A program made the translations under genes and the position numbers. Below, piece after piece: positions 174-6,043 of a DNA stretch of 64,000 nucleotides; position 1 is the first letter of the stretch, and every line of letters begins with the position of its first letter. Origin of the DNA: Escherichia phage vB-Eco-KMB39; the sequence record OR539219.1. One strand, 5' to 3'. Below the pieces are notes generated by a model. That model was not told the DNA's origin, ran no database searches, and was given only the letters and a program-made list of their open reading frames with translations.

Positions 174-1178
174 TTAGCTTACCAATTCAATCCAAGCCGG
201 ACGAAGTACATCTTGTACCATTTTAACTAATTCCTTTTTAATCAAAGAAGGATTATCCGCTTGAGTTAGAGTAATACCTTCACGAGAAGTTTCTTCCAAA
301 ATATCTTGAACAGTTAGTCCCATCACTTTTCCAAAATCCTTCGGACCAATTTCGCCAATTTTAGAAATAACGTTATTTACTCGGTTCAGTGTAACGTAAC
401 AAGCTAAAATTCCCAGCAATTTATTATCAGCTTCTGACAGTTCAACTTTAGCTTTAATAGGCTTATCAGACTTTTTCTTTTCACTAAATTTAGAGTTCTT
501 GCATTTAATCGCTACGCGATTGCCATTAGGCATCCAAGAAGGATAACAAGGTTTCAATACATATCCTTCAGCAGTAAATACTTCGCCTTTTGCTTCGGCA
601 TTCCAAACGCATTTATTTGCATCAACTAATCCAGCATGGTCTACTGTAAAATTATAATCTTGAACGACAGAATCTAAATCGTTTGGCAATTTAATAAGCT
701 CTTCAAATTTACCGCGACCCAAAAGTGGAGCCATTTTAAATTTAAATGTATTACAGAATGATTCCATCATATAATCATCGACATAAGTCACATCACCACT
801 TTCGGTAGTAACAATAATGTCAAATACATAAAAATCTTTATCACCATAATCGACATTCTTCTGAATGCCAGGTCCAGCAAATTCGCCAAAGACTTGATAA
901 GATACAACTGCCGAAGTTTCCATAATATCTTGTACTGCTTTAATGGAATCAGCGTAATTTTTTAGAATAATTTCATACCCAAAGAAATCTTCAGCAGGAA
1001 GAATAGGACCAGTACGTTTAGCACAAGTTGCTTTATCGCGTTCAATAATCAGTGAGAAATTTGTGCCATGAATCTTTTCACGAGCTACCCATTCGCCGCC
1101 AGTCAATCCTAAACTGTAAAGTTTTTCAATGAATTTAGAATTGTAATGATTTTCAAGACTGCTATACTTTTTAAACAT
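174..1178 (-). CDS. rnlB: RNA ligase 2 (Rnl2, gene 24.1)
   Basis: 334 aa ORF; sequence [42 protein letters not shown]... matches recalled T4 Rnl2 almost residue for residue, including the ligase KIHG lysine motif. Confidence 0.93.
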
Positions 1179-1187
1179 AATTAATCC

Positions 1188-1466
1188 TCAAAATGTAATT
1201 TCTAACCAATCACCATCACGCTGGTCACTATTGACTTTAAAGCTAAATCCTTCTTTTCTCAGCCAATCACCAATTTCTTCAGTAATCAATTTATCGCGAG
1301 CAGTGCAATAATAACTAAAATATGTTTTACCTTGTTCAGCTGCTTTATTAGCAAGTTCCGAAAAATCTTTAATAAAACACTCTAGCTTAAACTGTTTGCT
1401 TTTAAGTGCTTTTTCGCGTAATTGATTAGCAAAAGATTCATTTTCATAAAGATCATACTGTTCCAT
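1188..1466 (-). CDS. Hypothetical protein (position of T4 24.2)
   Basis: 92 aa ORF tightly packed downstream of rnlB; synteny only. Confidence 0.55.
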   Translation of the reverse strand: MEQYDLYENESFANQLREKALKSKQFKLECFIKDFSELANKAAEQGKTYFSYYCTARDKLITEEIGDWLRKEGFSFKVNSDQRDGDWLEITF

Positions 1467-1668
1467 TTTTCACCTTCTTATTAATATGTCTTTTTCTATA
1501 GACAACTTTTTCTCGAGTCTCAAATTTATTCTTAGCAGTCATAGCTCGAGCCCATAATACAGCCACTTCCTTTGCCTGTAAGTTCAATTCACGAGCAATT
1601 TCAATGAATGACTTTCCAGACTCATGGAGTGTAAACACCACAACCTCAGTTCTCATAATCAATCTCAT
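1453..1668 (-). CDS. Hypothetical small protein (position of T4 24.3)
   Basis: 71 aa ORF; 14 nt overlap with the next gene; synteny only. Confidence 0.5.
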   Translation of the reverse strand: MRLIMRTEVVVFTLHESGKSFIEIARELNLQAKEVAVLWARAMTAKNKFETREKVVYRKRHINKKVKNGTV

Positions 1669-1735
1669 GTTATCGAGTTGGTGCCATTATATACATCGTT
1701 TTCTGATTGTGTTTTGTGTGCTTTCAAAATGAAGA

Positions 1736-1752
1736 AAGGGGCCGAAGCCCCT
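1736..1752 (-). terminator. Hairpin terminator downstream of hoc
   Basis: GGGGCCGAAGCCCC; on the minus strand reads GGGGCUUCGGCCCC (UUCG tetraloop) followed by U-rich tract. Confidence 0.55.
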
Positions 1753-1756
1753 GAGA

Positions 1757-3175
1757 TTATGGATAGGTATAGATGATACCAGTTTCTAAAGCAGTTTTAT
1801 GAATGATGTATCCATTACGCGATTCTTGAACATCAACTTCTGGATAGTCTTTCATCATCTTCTGAAGAGTGTAACGATGCAAGTAGTACTTACTATCTGG
1901 ATCGTCAGTTTTCCAATCTTTACCTTCTTCAGTCATTTTTTGGATTTCATCCATAACCCACCAACCGCACCAGATATAAGCTGAAGTACGATGTGGAAGA
2001 GGATGAACATAAGGCAATTCACCTTCTGGTTCCGGAGCAACTTTATCAGTTACCTGAACTTGACCAGTCGCTTTAACTGTTTTACTATCATAGTCAGTTG
2101 CTGTAACGACAGCAGTAACTTCAATAGTTTGGCTTCCAATAGATGAGGTATCAACAGTATATACGTTAGTTGACCCTTCTACAGGAGAAGAATCTTTCTT
2201 CCATGAATACGTAATTTGTGCTTCTTCCGGAGCATCCGTAACATTAGCGGTAAATGTAGCCGAAGCATCTTGCTGAACATTAATAGAAGGAGGAGTCAAT
2301 GTAACCTGTGGATTCATTGTCTTCTTATTAACCGTTAATGATACTTCATTAGAAGTAACTGTTTTTGCGTCGTAATCCGTTGCTGTTACTTGGGCTATGC
2401 ATTTAATTTTTTTAACTCCAGCCACAGTTGGAGTATAGTTAAATGTAGAGTTAGTTTCTCCATCAACTTGTGAATCATCTACATACCACTGATACGTGGC
2501 AGACGCTCCATCAGGTTGAGAAGCTAAGGCAGCAGTAAATTGAACCGGGGTTCCAATTACTCCAGCAGCAGGACTATCAGGAGTTACTGCCAAGGTAGTT
2601 GTCTGCGTCTTTTTATTAACAGTCAGTGACACTTCATTAGAAGTAACTTCCTTTGTATCATAATCTGCCGCGGTTACTTGAGCTACACACTTAATTGTTT
2701 TAACTCCGCTTGTGGAAGGAGTGTAATTAAATGTAGCAGAAGTTGCTTCGCCCACAGGAGAACCGTCAACGTACCATTGATATGTAGCAGTTGCGCCCGA
2801 TGGCTGCGAAGCTAAAGCAGCAGTAAATTCAACAGCTGTTCCAATTACTCCTTCTGGAGGACTATTAGGAGTTACAGCTAAAGTAGTTGTCTGTGTCTTA
2901 TTTTGAACTGTGATAGTTGTAGTAGCTTCTGCTGTTTCAGCATCAGTATCTGGAACTGGGTTTGTTGCAACTACTTTAATAGTTTTTTGACCGGCAGGTC
3001 CTTTTAATACATAACTAAAAGTTGCAGATGTTTCTTCCTGTGGAACATCATCTACAGTCCAAGCATATGTAATAGGTCCATCTCCAGTTTGACCACTGGG
3101 TGTAGCAGTAAACTGCTGAGTCTGATCTATAACTCCAGTAGGTGTTTTAGGAGTTATATCAACTGTAAAAGCCAT
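1757..3175 (-). CDS. hoc: Hoc, highly immunogenic outer capsid protein, with four Ig-like domains
   Basis: 472 aa; tandem Ig-like ~95 aa modules plus C-terminal capsid-binding region; T4 Hoc is 376 aa, so one extra module. Confidence 0.88.
   Translation of the reverse strand: MAFTVDITPKTPTGVIDQTQQFTATPSGQTGDGPITYAWTVDDVPQEETSATFSYVLKGPAGQKTIKVVATNPVPDTDAETAEATTTITVQNKTQTTTLAVTPNSPPEGVIGTAVEFTAALASQPSGATATYQWYVDGSPVGEATSATFNYTPSTSGVKTIKCVAQVTAADYDTKEVTSNEVSLTVNKKTQTTTLAVTPDSPAAGVIGTPVQFTAALASQPDGASATYQWYVDDSQVDGETNSTFNYTPTVAGVKKIKCIAQVTATDYDAKTVTSNEVSLTVNKKTMNPQVTLTPPSINVQQDASATFTANVTDAPEEAQITYSWKKDSSPVEGSTNVYTVDTSSIGSQTIEVTAVVTATDYDSKTVKATGQVQVTDKVAPEPEGELPYVHPLPHRTSAYIWCGWWVMDEIQKMTEEGKDWKTDDPDSKYYLHRYTLQKMMKDYPEVDVQESRNGYIIHKTALETGIIYTYP
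2330..2899 (-). repeat. Internal tandem duplication (~285 bp x2) encoding two near-identical Ig-like domains within hoc
   Basis: Protein modules KTQTTTLAVTPNSPPEGVIGTAVEFTAALASQPSG...SLTVNKK and TQTTTLAVTPDSPAAGVIGTPVQFTAALASQPDG...SLTVNKK are ~80% identical; approximate DNA limits. Confidence 0.75.
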
Positions 3176-3184
3176 AAGTTATCC

Positions 3185-3865
3185 TTATTTTAATGTTACG
3201 AAAGAAGAGTTGCGTGTTTCACGAATTAAAACTGATCCGTCACGGTTAATGTAGTAAATTAAGCTAAATAAAGTTTGGTGTGCCGACGCGTGTTCAAAAC
3301 TAGTTGGGTGAGATTTCCAATCCGGAGTTTCAGCGATCCATTGATAAATCCACCAAGGAACCGTGCAAAATCCTGGATTTTTTCCAATCAGCTGAAGATT
3401 CGGACTAAAGTTTTCCGGAAGAGTAAATACAGACGGCTTTTCAGATTCAATAATCTCAGCTACAGCCTGTTCGAATTTTTCTTCAACAAAAGGAGTATCT
3501 TCAATCAAAACGTCAGTATTTTCGGGAATTTTATCCGTTTCTACTACTTCAATTTTAATGTCAGATTTAACCGGAGAATCAATCAGAAGTGCTGCTTCTG
3601 GATTGACTTCTTCATCGTCATATTTTAACCCCTCTGCGGCATCAGCAGCATTGATTAAGTCTTTAATAGATAACCCATCAGTCTCTGGCATAGGTTCACT
3701 AGCGAGCTTCTGGAGGGCTTCTTCAATATCAATAACGATATTATCAAAAGATTTATTCTTTTTGACCTTTATACCAAACTGTTCAGCATATTCAGCTAAT
3801 TTAGCTTTAGCTTCTTTATTATCATCAAGAGCCTTCAGCTCTGCAATATAATCTTTATCTATCAT
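3185..3865 (-). CDS. inh: Inh, inhibitor of prohead protease gp21
   Basis: 226 aa acidic ORF directly upstream of hoc, same length and position as T4 inh. Confidence 0.8.
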   Translation of the reverse strand: MIDKDYIAELKALDDNKEAKAKLAEYAEQFGIKVKKNKSFDNIVIDIEEALQKLASEPMPETDGLSIKDLINAADAAEGLKYDDEEVNPEAALLIDSPVKSDIKIEVVETDKIPENTDVLIEDTPFVEEKFEQAVAEIIESEKPSVFTLPENFSPNLQLIGKNPGFCTVPWWIYQWIAETPDWKSHPTSFEHASAHQTLFSLIYYINRDGSVLIRETRNSSFVTLK

Positions 3866-3878
3866 AATATTTCCTCAG

Positions 3879-3886
3879 TATAAATA
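3879..3886 (+). promoter_or_regulatory. T4-type late promoter (TATAAATA) for segD/uvsW
   Basis: Exact TATAAATA about 30 nt upstream of the segD ATG. Confidence 0.6.
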
Positions 3887-3914: not shown

Positions 3915-4532
3915 ATGTACCACTTTGTATATGAAACAACAAATCTAATAAACGGTAAAAAGTATATAGGAAAACACTCTACTGATGACTTGAATGATGG
4001 TTACCTTGGTTCCGGTAAGGCAATTCAGCAGGCTATAAAGAAATATGGTGAAAACAATTTCTCTAGAACAATACTAAAAGAGTTTAAAACTTCCGAAGAA
4101 GCGTACATGTATGAAGAAGAAATTATAACTCCTGAAATAATAAAAAGCAAAAATTATTATAATATGAAACCTGGTGGAATTGGTGGAATTGTTATGACTA
4201 CAGAGGTTATAGCAAAGATGAAAGAATCTTCCGCTAAGAGATTTGAAAACTCACCGGGCACGGTATTAGGTACAACTTGTTACACCAATGGAACTAAAAA
4301 TATTTTTATTAAACCTGGAGAACTTGTTCCAGAAGGATTTGTAAAAGGGATGGTTCATCCTAATAGAAAGTCCAGAAAAGGATGTAAAGTCAAACCGACT
4401 ACCACAGGAACTTTTTGGGTCAATAATGGCGCAATAAATAAATTAATACAACCAGACGGTATTATTCCCGACGGATTTATTAAAGGTCGTCTCATGAAAA
4501 GAGATTCTAAAGGCAAATTTAGTAAGGCATAA
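3915..4532 (+). CDS. segD: GIY-YIG homing endonuclease SegD
   Basis: 205 aa; N-terminal GIY-YIG motif (VYETTNLINGKKYIGKH); located between inh and uvsW as T4 segD. Confidence 0.82.
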   Translation: MYHFVYETTNLINGKKYIGKHSTDDLNDGYLGSGKAIQQAIKKYGENNFSRTILKEFKTSEEAYMYEEEIITPEIIKSKNYYNMKPGGIGGIVMTTEVIAKMKESSAKRFENSPGTVLGTTCYTNGTKNIFIKPGELVPEGFVKGMVHPNRKSRKGCKVKPTTTGTFWVNNGAINKLIQPDGIIPDGFIKGRLMKRDSKGKFSKA

Positions 4533-4534
4533 TT

Positions 4535-6043
4535 ATGGATATTAAAGTACATTTTCACGACTTCAGTCATGTACGCATCGATTGTGAAGAGAGCACGTTC
4601 CACGAATTAAGAGATTTCTTTTCGTTTGAGGCAGATGGATATAGGTTTAATCCTCGCTTCAGATATGGCAACTGGGATGGACGAATCCGTCTTTTAGATT
4701 ATAATCGTCTTCTTCCGTTCGGCTTAGTCGGGCAAATTAAAAAGTTCTGCGATAACTTTGGCTATAAAGCCTGGATTGACCCTCAAATTAATGAAAAAGA
4801 AGAATTATCAAGAAAAGATTTTGATGAATGGCTTTCTAAATTAGAAATCTATTCAGGAAATAAAAGAATTGAACCACACTGGTATCAAAAAGATGCAGTG
4901 TTCGAAGGATTAGTTAATCGTCGCAGAATTCTTAATCTTCCAACATCCGCAGGTAAATCTTTAATTCAAGCTTTGCTTGCACGTTATTATTTGGAAAATT
5001 ATGAAGGTAAAATTCTTATCATTGTTCCAACAACTGCTCTGACAACTCAGATGGCTGATGACTTTGTTGACTATCGTTTATTCAGTCATGCAATGATAAA
5101 GAAAATCGGCGGCGGAGCATCAAAAGATGATAAATATAAAAATGATGCACCAGTCGTCGTTGGTACATGGCAAACTGTAGTTAAACAACCGAAAGAATGG
5201 TTCTCACAGTTTGGAATGATGATGAATGATGAATGTCATCTTGCTACAGGAAAAAGTATTTCATCTATCATATCAGGATTAAATAACTGTATGTTTAAAT
5301 TTGGTCTATCAGGTTCATTACGTGATGGCAAAGCCAATATCATGCAGTATGTTGGAATGTTTGGTGAAATATTTAAACCAGTAACGACTTCTAAATTAAT
5401 GGAAGATGGACAAGTAACTGAGCTAAAAATTAATAGTATTTTTCTTCGCTATCCCGATGAGTTCACTACTAAATTAAAGGGAAAAACTTACCAAGAAGAA
5501 ATAAAAATTATTACTGGACTCAGTAAAAGAAATAAATGGATTGCTAAATTAGCTATTAAACTTGCACAAAAAGATGAAAACGCTTTTGTCATGTTTAAGC
5601 ATGTATCACATGGTAAAGCTATTTTCGATTTAATTAAAAATGAATACGATAAAGTTTATTACGTATCAGGGGAAGTTGATACCGAAACACGCAACGTAAT
5701 GAAAACCCTAGCTGAAAACGGTAAAGGAATAATTATAGTAGCTAGTTATGGTGTATTTTCTACTGGTATTTCAGTTAAAAATCTGCATCACGTTGTTTTA
5801 GCGCACGGTGTTAAATCAAAAATCATTGTATTACAAACAATCGGTCGTGTATTACGTAAGCATGGTTCTAAGACAATAGCAACAGTCTGGGATCTTATAG
5901 ATGACGCGGGCGTAGTTTCTAAATCAAAAACATCTTCTAAAAAATACTCGCATTTAAACTATCTTTTAAAACATGGACTTGATCGTATTCAGCGTTATGC
6001 TGATGAAAAGTTTAATTATGTGATGAAAGAGGTTAAACTTTGA
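4535..6043 (+). CDS. uvsW: UvsW RNA-DNA and DNA helicase
   Basis: 502 aa; SF2 helicase motifs (Walker A region PTSAGKS, DECH box MMMNDECHLA); sequence matches recalled T4 UvsW. Confidence 0.92.
   Translation: MDIKVHFHDFSHVRIDCEESTFHELRDFFSFEADGYRFNPRFRYGNWDGRIRLLDYNRLLPFGLVGQIKKFCDNFGYKAWIDPQINEKEELSRKDFDEWLSKLEIYSGNKRIEPHWYQKDAVFEGLVNRRRILNLPTSAGKSLIQALLARYYLENYEGKILIIVPTTALTTQMADDFVDYRLFSHAMIKKIGGGASKDDKYKNDAPVVVGTWQTVVKQPKEWFSQFGMMMNDECHLATGKSISSIISGLNNCMFKFGLSGSLRDGKANIMQYVGMFGEIFKPVTTSKLMEDGQVTELKINSIFLRYPDEFTTKLKGKTYQEEIKIITGLSKRNKWIAKLAIKLAQKDENAFVMFKHVSHGKAIFDLIKNEYDKVYYVSGEVDTETRNVMKTLAENGKGIIIVASYGVFSTGISVKNLHHVVLAHGVKSKIIVLQTIGRVLRKHGSKTIATVWDLIDDAGVVSKSKTSSKKYSHLNYLLKHGLDRIQRYADEKFNYVMKEVKL

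Follow-up and report, generated by a model that had tools for sequence, protein, structure and literature searches.

What is the origin of the Ig-like domain by which the Hoc protein of Escherichia phage vB-Eco-KMB39 exceeds that of T4, and how long has it been there? The hoc product, the highly immunogenic outer capsid protein, is a non-essential head decoration protein of T4-type phages; it also underlies the "bacteriophage adherence to mucus" (BAM) model and serves as the standard scaffold for display on T4 vaccines and nanoparticles. In the window that we analysed, the whole 64,000-nucleotide stretch of this phage's DNA (sequence record OR539219.1), hoc carries two neighbouring modules that resemble each other closely, which the original prediction, made from the letters alone, took to be the outcome of a recent internal tandem duplication. 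We conclude that the repeat is real and its recency is not: what we see is in all probability a two-module hoc allele that is old and widespread, one state in a natural series of zero to three module copies, and as such represents ordinary variation.

The gene had been called hoc in that prediction, and the identification is borne out by its match to T4 Hoc, its position and its C-terminal domain. Its 472-aa product matched the PDB chains of T4 Hoc (5vf3_Z etc.) with an E value of about 1e-214 in phmmer, many matching phage records annotate this gene as hoc, and the gene order rnlB-24.2-24.3-hoc-inh-segE-uvsW is the same as in T4, which places the gene where a hoc is found (Table 1). The HMMER match to T4 Hoc falls into two pieces, with query residues 1-106 aligned to T4 1-106 and residues 189-472 to T4 93-376, and because the match splits around them, residues 93-188 have no collinear T4 partner. 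Among phage records the closest match is the gene at the hoc position of OES_C-2, with 96.8% nt identity. The 20 kb adjoining hoc had their best match in T6 (97.2% identity), on which basis we assign the stretch to a T6/T4-like Tequatrovirus; the hoc of T6 itself is of single-module length. As to expression signals, a consensus scan, which is a pattern match only, placed a terminator-like hairpin beginning 5 nt past the hoc stop, and a terminator is annotated beside hoc in the record of phage NBG2. Immediately upstream of hoc and of inh, the minus strand has no exact copy of the T4 late-promoter motif TATAAATA; the only nearby match precedes segE and is on the plus strand.

Table 1. Features of the hoc region of vB-Eco-KMB39 (positions are those of the window; aa, residues of the hoc product)
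Feature	Position	Strand	Basis and remarks
rnlB	174-1178	-	ORF list
24.2	1188-1466	-	ORF list
24.3	1453-1668	-	ORF list
Terminator-like hairpin AGGGGCTTCGGCCCCT + T-rich tail	1727-1752	-	Consensus scan
hoc coding sequence, 472 aa + stop	1757-3175	-	ORF list; phmmer; nt matches in phage records
C-terminal capsid-binding domain, aa 381-472 + stop	1757-2035	-	Near-identical to T4 Hoc 285-376
Last Ig-like domain, aa 285-380	2036-2323	-	Orthologue of T4 Hoc domain 3; Ig_3/I-set Pfam 289-374
Repeat module B, aa 189-284	2324-2611	-	Orthologue of T4 Hoc domain 2; best PKD PF00801 stretch 195-253
NEVSLT motif copy 2, aa 276-281, closing module B	2333-2350	-	Motif search; putative function
Repeat module A, aa 93-188	2612-2899	-	Ig-like domain extra vs T4; PKD/Ig Pfam matches; pLDDT >90
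NEVSLT motif copy 1, aa 180-185, closing module A	2621-2638	-	Motif search; putative function
Ig-like domain 1 (Ig1), aa 1-92	2900-3175	-	Beta-sandwich aa 1-91 (AF2), block pLDDT 80-94; aligns with T4 Hoc 1-92
inh	3185-3865	-	ORF list
segE	3915-4532	+	ORF list
uvsW	4535-6043	+	ORF list

Pfam, phmmer, the AlphaFold2 (AF2) model and its fold matches agree with the original prediction in giving four Ig-like domains in 472 aa, against three in the 376 aa of T4 Hoc. The protein scored 40.1 bits for PKD (cut-off 23.5), with stretches in both module A and module B, and 31.7 bits for Ig_3 (cut-off 30). The AF2 model, built on a 28-sequence alignment, has four beta-sandwich domains with strands at aa 4-91, 99-187, 194-283 and 290-376 and pLDDT mostly above 90, and its C-terminal 92 residues are of low confidence. 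The best PDB fold matches found by Foldseek are themselves strings of four Ig domains (Sidekick Ig1-4, Dscam1 Ig1-4 and ICAM-5 D1-D4). In the C-terminal domain, residues 381-472 differ from T4 285-376 at one residue (T397; S in T4; nd 1.0, dN 0.004), and capsid-binding function has been assigned to T4 Hoc residues 281-376 (PMC10385173). Two of the features that mark a protein as a Hoc, the homologous C-terminal capsid-binding domain and the N-terminal linear string of Ig-like domains, are present, and Hoc of vB-Eco-KMB39 is, as modeled, four Ig-like domains plus a capsid-binding domain.

The internal repeat could be detected in several ways. Comparison of the protein with itself gave one standout diagonal, at an offset of 96 aa with 68 identities in 90 positions (28 of 90 at the runner-up offset), and comparison of the coding DNA with itself gave a standout offset of 288 nt with 74% identity over 270 nt (46% for the runner-up); a repeat search (find_repeats) returned the same 288-nt spacing in hoc. 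Such a single strong diagonal is what the self-comparison proposed with the original prediction was expected to find, and the position given for the repeat, 2330-2899, lies within 6 nt of the 2324-2899 that we obtained. Its estimated size of about 95 aa corresponds to 96 aa, although "about 80%" identity was a little high: in register, modules A and B are identical at 74 of 96 aa (77%) and 215 of 288 nt (74.7%). All other pairs of Hoc domains have 27-38% protein identity, and the additional domain is, as had been supposed, a tandem paralogue of its neighbour. Tandem Repeats Finder reported no repeat in hoc; this is expected, since two copies at about 75% identity score under its threshold, and it is not counter-evidence. 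In-frame comparisons over 288 nt at the other offsets within hoc give a background identity of 31.1% +/- 3.0%, with a maximum of 44.8%, so that the A/B repeat, some 14 SD above it, is far beyond chance.

Could the repeat nevertheless be an artefact, either a mis-assembled or expanded repeat or a chance likeness between neighbouring Ig domains? Repeats are a frequent cause of assembly error, yet we regard this explanation as extremely improbable and have rejected it in both its forms. With 73 of 288 positions different between the copies, reads would not collapse or expand them, and the reading frame is unbroken across 472 codons; the chance version founders on an A/B identity so far above the background. 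Moreover, hoc has the same length in hundreds of independent assemblies, and a cluster of 472-aa proteins (P0009, from a public assembly) is 100% identical to the Hoc of vB-Eco-KMB39.

The extent of this distribution can be gauged from the 678 phage records that match hoc, 598 of them with at least 80% gene coverage. Among 60 rows sampled at even steps down the ranking of these records, 20 match in a single piece of about 1419 nt. The T4 form, with two pieces spanning 1131 nt, makes up most of the remainder, along with two 5-Ig forms and two forms of about 845 nt. Going by the length of the matches, a 4-Ig-length hoc is present in roughly one third of matching phage records. At the protein level, the 120 clusters listed, which are not to be counted as independent events, comprise 81 of 376 aa, 30 of 468-472 aa and 9 of 567-570 aa; several of the 472-aa clusters have 58-167 member sequences, and long-known isolates with a hoc of this length include PP01 and ime09.

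If the repeat is genuine, is it also recent? A recent, in-place tandem duplication of one Ig module in the lineage of vB-Eco-KMB39 itself, with slight drift since, would fit modules that are adjacent, in frame and exactly one domain long, that are much more alike (77% of residues) than any other two Hoc domains (27-38%), and of which T4 Hoc has only one. We consider it very unlikely all the same, and the first reason is the synonymous divergence between the copies. Third codon positions account for 45 of the 73 nt differences that separate A from B, and by the Nei-Gojobori method dS is 1.29 and dN 0.145. The corresponding dS values between vB-Eco-KMB39 and T4 within hoc are 0.36 for Ig1, 0.27 for module B against the T4 module, 0.34 for the last Ig-like domain and 0.27 for the C-terminal domain, and those for neighbouring genes are 0.14 (inh), 0.26 (rnlB) and 0.23 (uvsW). 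The A/B value is therefore four to nine times that of the orthologous segments (0.14-0.36), from which it follows that the A/B split is several times older than the separation of vB-Eco-KMB39 from T4.

The second reason is that each copy has closer relatives elsewhere, in the corresponding position of other phages. Module B has 89.9% nt identity and a dS of 0.27 to the single module of T4, whereas module A has 77.4% and 0.87; on these identities we take B as the orthologue of the T4 module and A as the extra one. The A type, with 84.7-96.2% nt identity to A, comprises the first modules of OES_C-2, L008 and UGKSEcP2 along with the lone module of F25 and that of L011; to the B type, with 87.2-97.6% nt identity to B, belong the second modules of the same three alleles and those of T4, L009 and L010, which have one module each. 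Module A has 74.7-80.2% nt identity to each of the B-type modules. Thus A and B are each nearer to their positional counterparts elsewhere (84-98% nt) than to each other (74.7%), and the A-B order is common to all three 4-Ig alleles compared at the DNA level. Already in OES_C-2, the closest record match, the A-B pair is present, with 96.2% identity to A in its first module and 97.6% to B in its second, and the single module of F25 has 94% identity to A.

The copies are, in short, neither near-identical at synonymous sites nor each other's closest relatives. The comparison with hoc of related phages, which had been suggested as a check, paired A and B by position and so speaks against a recent origin, as do a dS near saturation and the 4-Ig length of about one third of the matching records, with 4-Ig alleles common among isolates from many hosts. 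We had here to set aside the word "recent". The evidence that the two modules predate the divergence of these phages, and that the single-module form of T4 may be the derived one, is all that is mildly new in this.

If A and B are old, what has happened to them since? The 96-aa module is found in register, among homologous alleles, in zero, one, two or three copies, i.e., as a tandem array of variable copy number. It is absent from the 280-aa Hoc of JQD51, in which Ig1 is joined directly to the last Ig-like domain (the KTMNPQV domain), present once in the 376-aa proteins of T4 (B type) and F25 (A type), twice in the 472-aa protein of vB-Eco-KMB39, and three times in UGKSEcP2 (568-570 aa). In AV111 (282 aa), a further short allele, the head of a B-type module passes into the tail of the last Ig-like domain at the shared VTATDYD; this hybrid domain is a clear deletion scar. 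The Ig1 of F25 is identical to that of vB-Eco-KMB39 at 276 of 276 nt and F25 is without module B; judging from this pair of alleles, copy-number change is still under way among close relatives.

When T4, F25, L009 and L011 are modelled as single deletions from the vB-Eco-KMB39 allele, the better fit is a loss of A in T4 and L009 and of B in F25 and L011. The breakpoint scans have shallow minima (mismatches of 120 vs 121, 46 vs 48, 84 vs 87, and a tie at 86), which lie at the conserved module ends, so that the crossover points cannot be fixed. The minimum for F25 (243-269) overlaps the longest uninterrupted identity between A and B in vB-Eco-KMB39, a run of 18 nt (252-269), on a signal of only 2 nt.

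Exchange between the module types has also left its mark. We scored modules with position-specific A/B log-odds profiles, derived from the first and second modules of 29 two-module proteins, and among the 81 single-module clusters 42 have a B-type head and A-type middle, eight an A-type head and B-type tail and three other patterns, with 16 all-A and 12 all-B over the scorable thirds. Painting of the nucleotide sequences revealed the same A/B patchwork in two- and three-module alleles. These patterns support frequent exchange between module types in the phage population. Clustering by UPGMA of the 96-aa modules, taken from 121 proteins, left A and B unresolved at thresholds of 22% or more and told them apart only roughly at 18%; we put this down to a shortage of informative residues and the extent of the mosaicism, and the nucleotide identities of the smaller set and the A/B log-odds profile are the more informative. 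The suggestion that the repeat is a recombination hotspot holds in part: the mosaics in the population and the variation of copy number between near-identical alleles speak for it, but the longest shared run, at 18 nt, does not. As A and B share no more than this length of uninterrupted identity, they make a poor substrate for homologous recombination and a high rate of intragenic deletion is not to be expected.

How, then, might the array have come about? The reading that we favour, of an old two-module allele in a series, has the order Ig1, module A, module B, Ig4 and capsid-binding domain, A and B being long-separated paralogues (or one-time alleles) of a single 96-residue PKD/Ig-like module. 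Recombination in register, at the conserved module boundaries (...SLTVNK|KTQTTTL...) or close to them, would interconvert the states with zero, one, two and three copies, and exchange of segments between A-type and B-type modules would generate the mosaics. Whether each change of copy number was a gain or a loss is something that we infer; the A-B arrangement may be the original one, from which modules were lost several times over, or two diverged alleles with one module each may have been combined into it on a single occasion.

The latter course would be that A and B were brought together by an unequal or illegitimate crossover between co-infecting phages with single modules of the A type and the B type. 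T-even phages recombine freely upon co-infection, three-Ig alleles with A only (F25, L011) and with B only (T4, L009, L010) exist, and a short stretch of similar sequence, GTT-AA.AA.AAGAC, recurs at the module boundaries and could aid an out-of-register join. This scenario, in which the copies were already about 25% different at their joining, the join could be much younger than the A/B split and the single module of T4 would be ancestral, nonetheless strikes us as unlikely. The A-B order and the exact 288-nt register are found in all 4-Ig alleles examined, and extend to the three modules of the 5-Ig alleles, which means that any joining of A to B was old or singular. Furthermore, most alleles with one module are mosaics and not pure A or B, which a descent from multi-module alleles would lead one to expect, and the zero-module and hybrid alleles of JQD51 and AV111 show that deletions occur. 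It should be said that joining of alleles overlaps with the explanation of an old two-module allele and concerns only the direction and history of events.

More speculatively, the middle of hoc in the T-even phages of E. coli might be a maintained cassette array, its A and B lineages reshuffled into zero to three copies and mosaics under selection on fibre length and NEVSLT valency, with the three-Ig Hoc of T4 derived by loss from a multi-module ancestor. We put this forward tentatively, as a possibility that we doubt more than we believe; if true, Hoc length would be a tunable trait.

What would a fourth Ig-like domain do for the virion? In T4 one Hoc monomer is located at each gp23 hexamer centre, is dispensable for infectivity and forms a fibre of about 180 Å (PMC10385173). 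By analogy, the C-terminal domain of the vB-Eco-KMB39 protein would seat one Hoc at the centre of each hexamer of the major capsid protein, and its four Ig domains would extend outward in a fibre that exceeds that of T4 by about one domain and in which the NEVSLT-bearing module would be shown twice. Under the BAM model it is the Ig-like domains of Hoc that bind mucin glycans (MUC2, fucose). In phage PhiPNJ-9, MUC2 binding by Hoc has been mapped to S183/L184/T185 in domain 2 (PMC11853027), and since NEVSLT closes both A and B, the reported mucin-binding site would occur twice in the Hoc of vB-Eco-KMB39. A fibre longer by one Ig domain, with two copies of the reported MUC2-binding NEVSLT motif, is likely by this reasoning, and an effect of the extra domain on the fibre and on mucus adherence, as the original prediction had envisaged, is plausible; capsid occupancy, fibre length and a change in adherence to mucin or surfaces are all inferred from T4 and PhiPNJ-9. 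The ratio dN/dS relative to T4 is about 0.2-0.3 in the Ig domains and 0.015 in the C-terminal domain; the Ig domains have thus been evolving faster than the anchor, which fits an exposed, adaptable surface.

We would describe the biological weight of the four-Ig allele as incremental. Variable numbers of Ig domains in Hoc are already known from the literature, and the 472-aa allele is already public. Fokine and colleagues described strings of one to ten Ig domains among 650 Hoc homologues (PMC10385173), and domain number in the Hoc proteins of T4-like phages has been noted to vary widely (PMC13435897). Our literature search found no paper describing the 376/472/568 series of Tequatrovirus as such, and returned general statements together with the cases of PhiPNJ-9 and PMBT63. 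For the choice of therapeutic T-even phages and for capsid engineering, it is of consequence that entire Ig modules are present in some natural Hoc alleles and absent from others, and that the motif reported to bind mucin may occur once, twice or three times among them.

Set beside the systems that are known, Hoc of vB-Eco-KMB39 stands closest to the other 472-aa alleles of Tequatrovirus, those of OES_C-1/2/3, DCP2, ECO07P4/5, PP01, slur02/04, ime09 and others, which have the same length and 90-97% nt identity and differ from it by point changes and small mosaic segments only; in OES_C-2 and the metagenomic contig L008 the A-B module order is confirmed in DNA. T4 Hoc (376 aa; PDB 5vf3, 8t1x etc.) has the same gene position and a C-terminal domain one residue apart, but it is without module A between Ig1 and domain 2, and has one NEVSLT where vB-Eco-KMB39 has two. 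The 5-Ig alleles (568-570 aa) of UGKSEcP1/UGKSEcP2 and Shigella phage ESh16 draw on the same module family, A-type first and B-type second, with a third tandem module of mixed A/B character that would extend the fibre by one more domain. At the other end of the series are the short variants (280-282 aa) of the Mosigvirus AV111, of JQD51 (filed under Tevenvirinae only) and of PhiPNJ-9, whose Hoc was described as a two-Ig variant (PMC11853027); they have the same Ig1 and C-terminal domains (84-96% nt), and the MUC2-binding SLT of PhiPNJ-9 belongs to the NEVSLT that is present in both A and B of vB-Eco-KMB39. More distant are the Hoc-like protein of Klebsiella phage PMBT63 (PMC13435897) and Hoc of Marfa (471 aa), which likewise have four Ig domains and a capsid-binding domain, with only about 46-50% identity. 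The extra Ig domain of the Klebsiella phage protein was described as an insertion relative to T4, and phage PMBT63 was better retained on mucin-coated surfaces (PMC13435897). Marfa has an internal 80% repeat of its own (68 of 85 identities, starting at aa 186, offset 94), one position further along the protein, and it is rare, most relatives having a 1134-nt form; because the duplicated pair is at a different position and rare among relatives, we regard the duplication in Marfa as an event independent of that which gave rise to modules A and B.

In some multi-Ig Hoc alleles, a module of the A or B type found in the window Hoc stands together with far more divergent Ig modules (KENNSAVAVTP..., KANSSTLKITP...), and in the cluster of Hoc proteins designated P0072 the second module begins like A or B and then continues as a segment, VEIGTATTFTANVSNQP, that matches the divergent type. 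Judged from these sequences, hoc appears to be a gene in which Ig cassettes of differing origin have been spliced together. The short Hoc alleles of phages AV111 and JQD51 are two distinct forms: that of JQD51 has no copies of the repeated module, and that of AV111 has a hybrid Ig domain in which a B-type module is joined to the last Ig at VTATDYD. AV111 is classified in the database as a Mosigvirus and JQD51 only as Tevenvirinae. In Ig1 and the C-terminal domain, the hoc genes of both phages are nonetheless 84-96% identical in nucleotide sequence to the Tequatrovirus hoc of the window, which suggests that hoc has been exchanged between genera.

Coordinates of hoc alleles and neighboring features (L numbers are loci of other phages, P numbers clusters of Hoc proteins)
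Feature	Location	Strand	Remarks
Terminator-like hairpin	window 1727-1752	-	GC-rich, CTTCGG loop, T-rich tail
Exact T4 late-promoter motif TATAAATA	window 3879-3886	+	29 nt upstream of segE start codon
segE	window 3915-4532	+	homing endonuclease gene
AV111 short hoc	L003 1501-2349		282 aa
JQD51 short hoc	L004 1501-2343		280 aa
Phage a20 hoc, OQ067374.1	L005 1501-2916		four-Ig length
Marfa hoc, MN044033.1	L013 1501-2916		471 aa, distant Hoc
T6 hoc, MH550421.1	L029 2209-3340		no hoc annotation in record
Multi-Ig Hoc, divergent modules	P0098		567 aa
Multi-Ig Hoc, divergent modules	P0072		472 aa

The segE gene near hoc has a dS of 0.04 relative to T4, i.e., synonymous sites are nearly the same, versus 0.14-0.26 for its neighbors inh, uvsW and rnlB, and the inh-uvsW interval of OES_C-2 and UGKSEcP2 is without segE. 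Both observations fit a recent spread of this gene into the window genome. Upstream of inh and of hoc, the minus strand has no exact copy of the T4 late-promoter motif that precedes segE. The hairpin resembling an intrinsic terminator begins 5 nt past the hoc stop codon, inside the 88-nt gap preceding 24.3.

The T6 hoc frame is present as two overlapping ORFs (2855-3340 and 2209-2934), and therefore the gene looks either frameshifted in the sequenced stock or mis-sequenced; the split apparently results from a 1-nt change within the A-run of the GVKKIK codons. The a20 hoc is annotated as three CDS (1501-1743, 1701-2153 and 2191-2916), reflecting either frameshifts or sequencing errors. Several 472-aa Hoc clusters (P0028, P0023, P0017 and others) bear bacterial names in NCBI, such as “endonuclease [Shigella sonnei]” and “PKD domain-containing protein [Escherichia coli]”, so bacterial assemblies evidently hold T-even phage contigs, and the product name of at least one such cluster is wrong.

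Duplication of a Hoc Ig domain is seen in Klebsiella phage Marfa, whose Hoc has an internal repeat (68/85 identities at an offset of 94, starting at aa 186), while the majority of related Klebsiella phages have a 1134-nt, three-Ig hoc gene. The Marfa duplication is an independent event.
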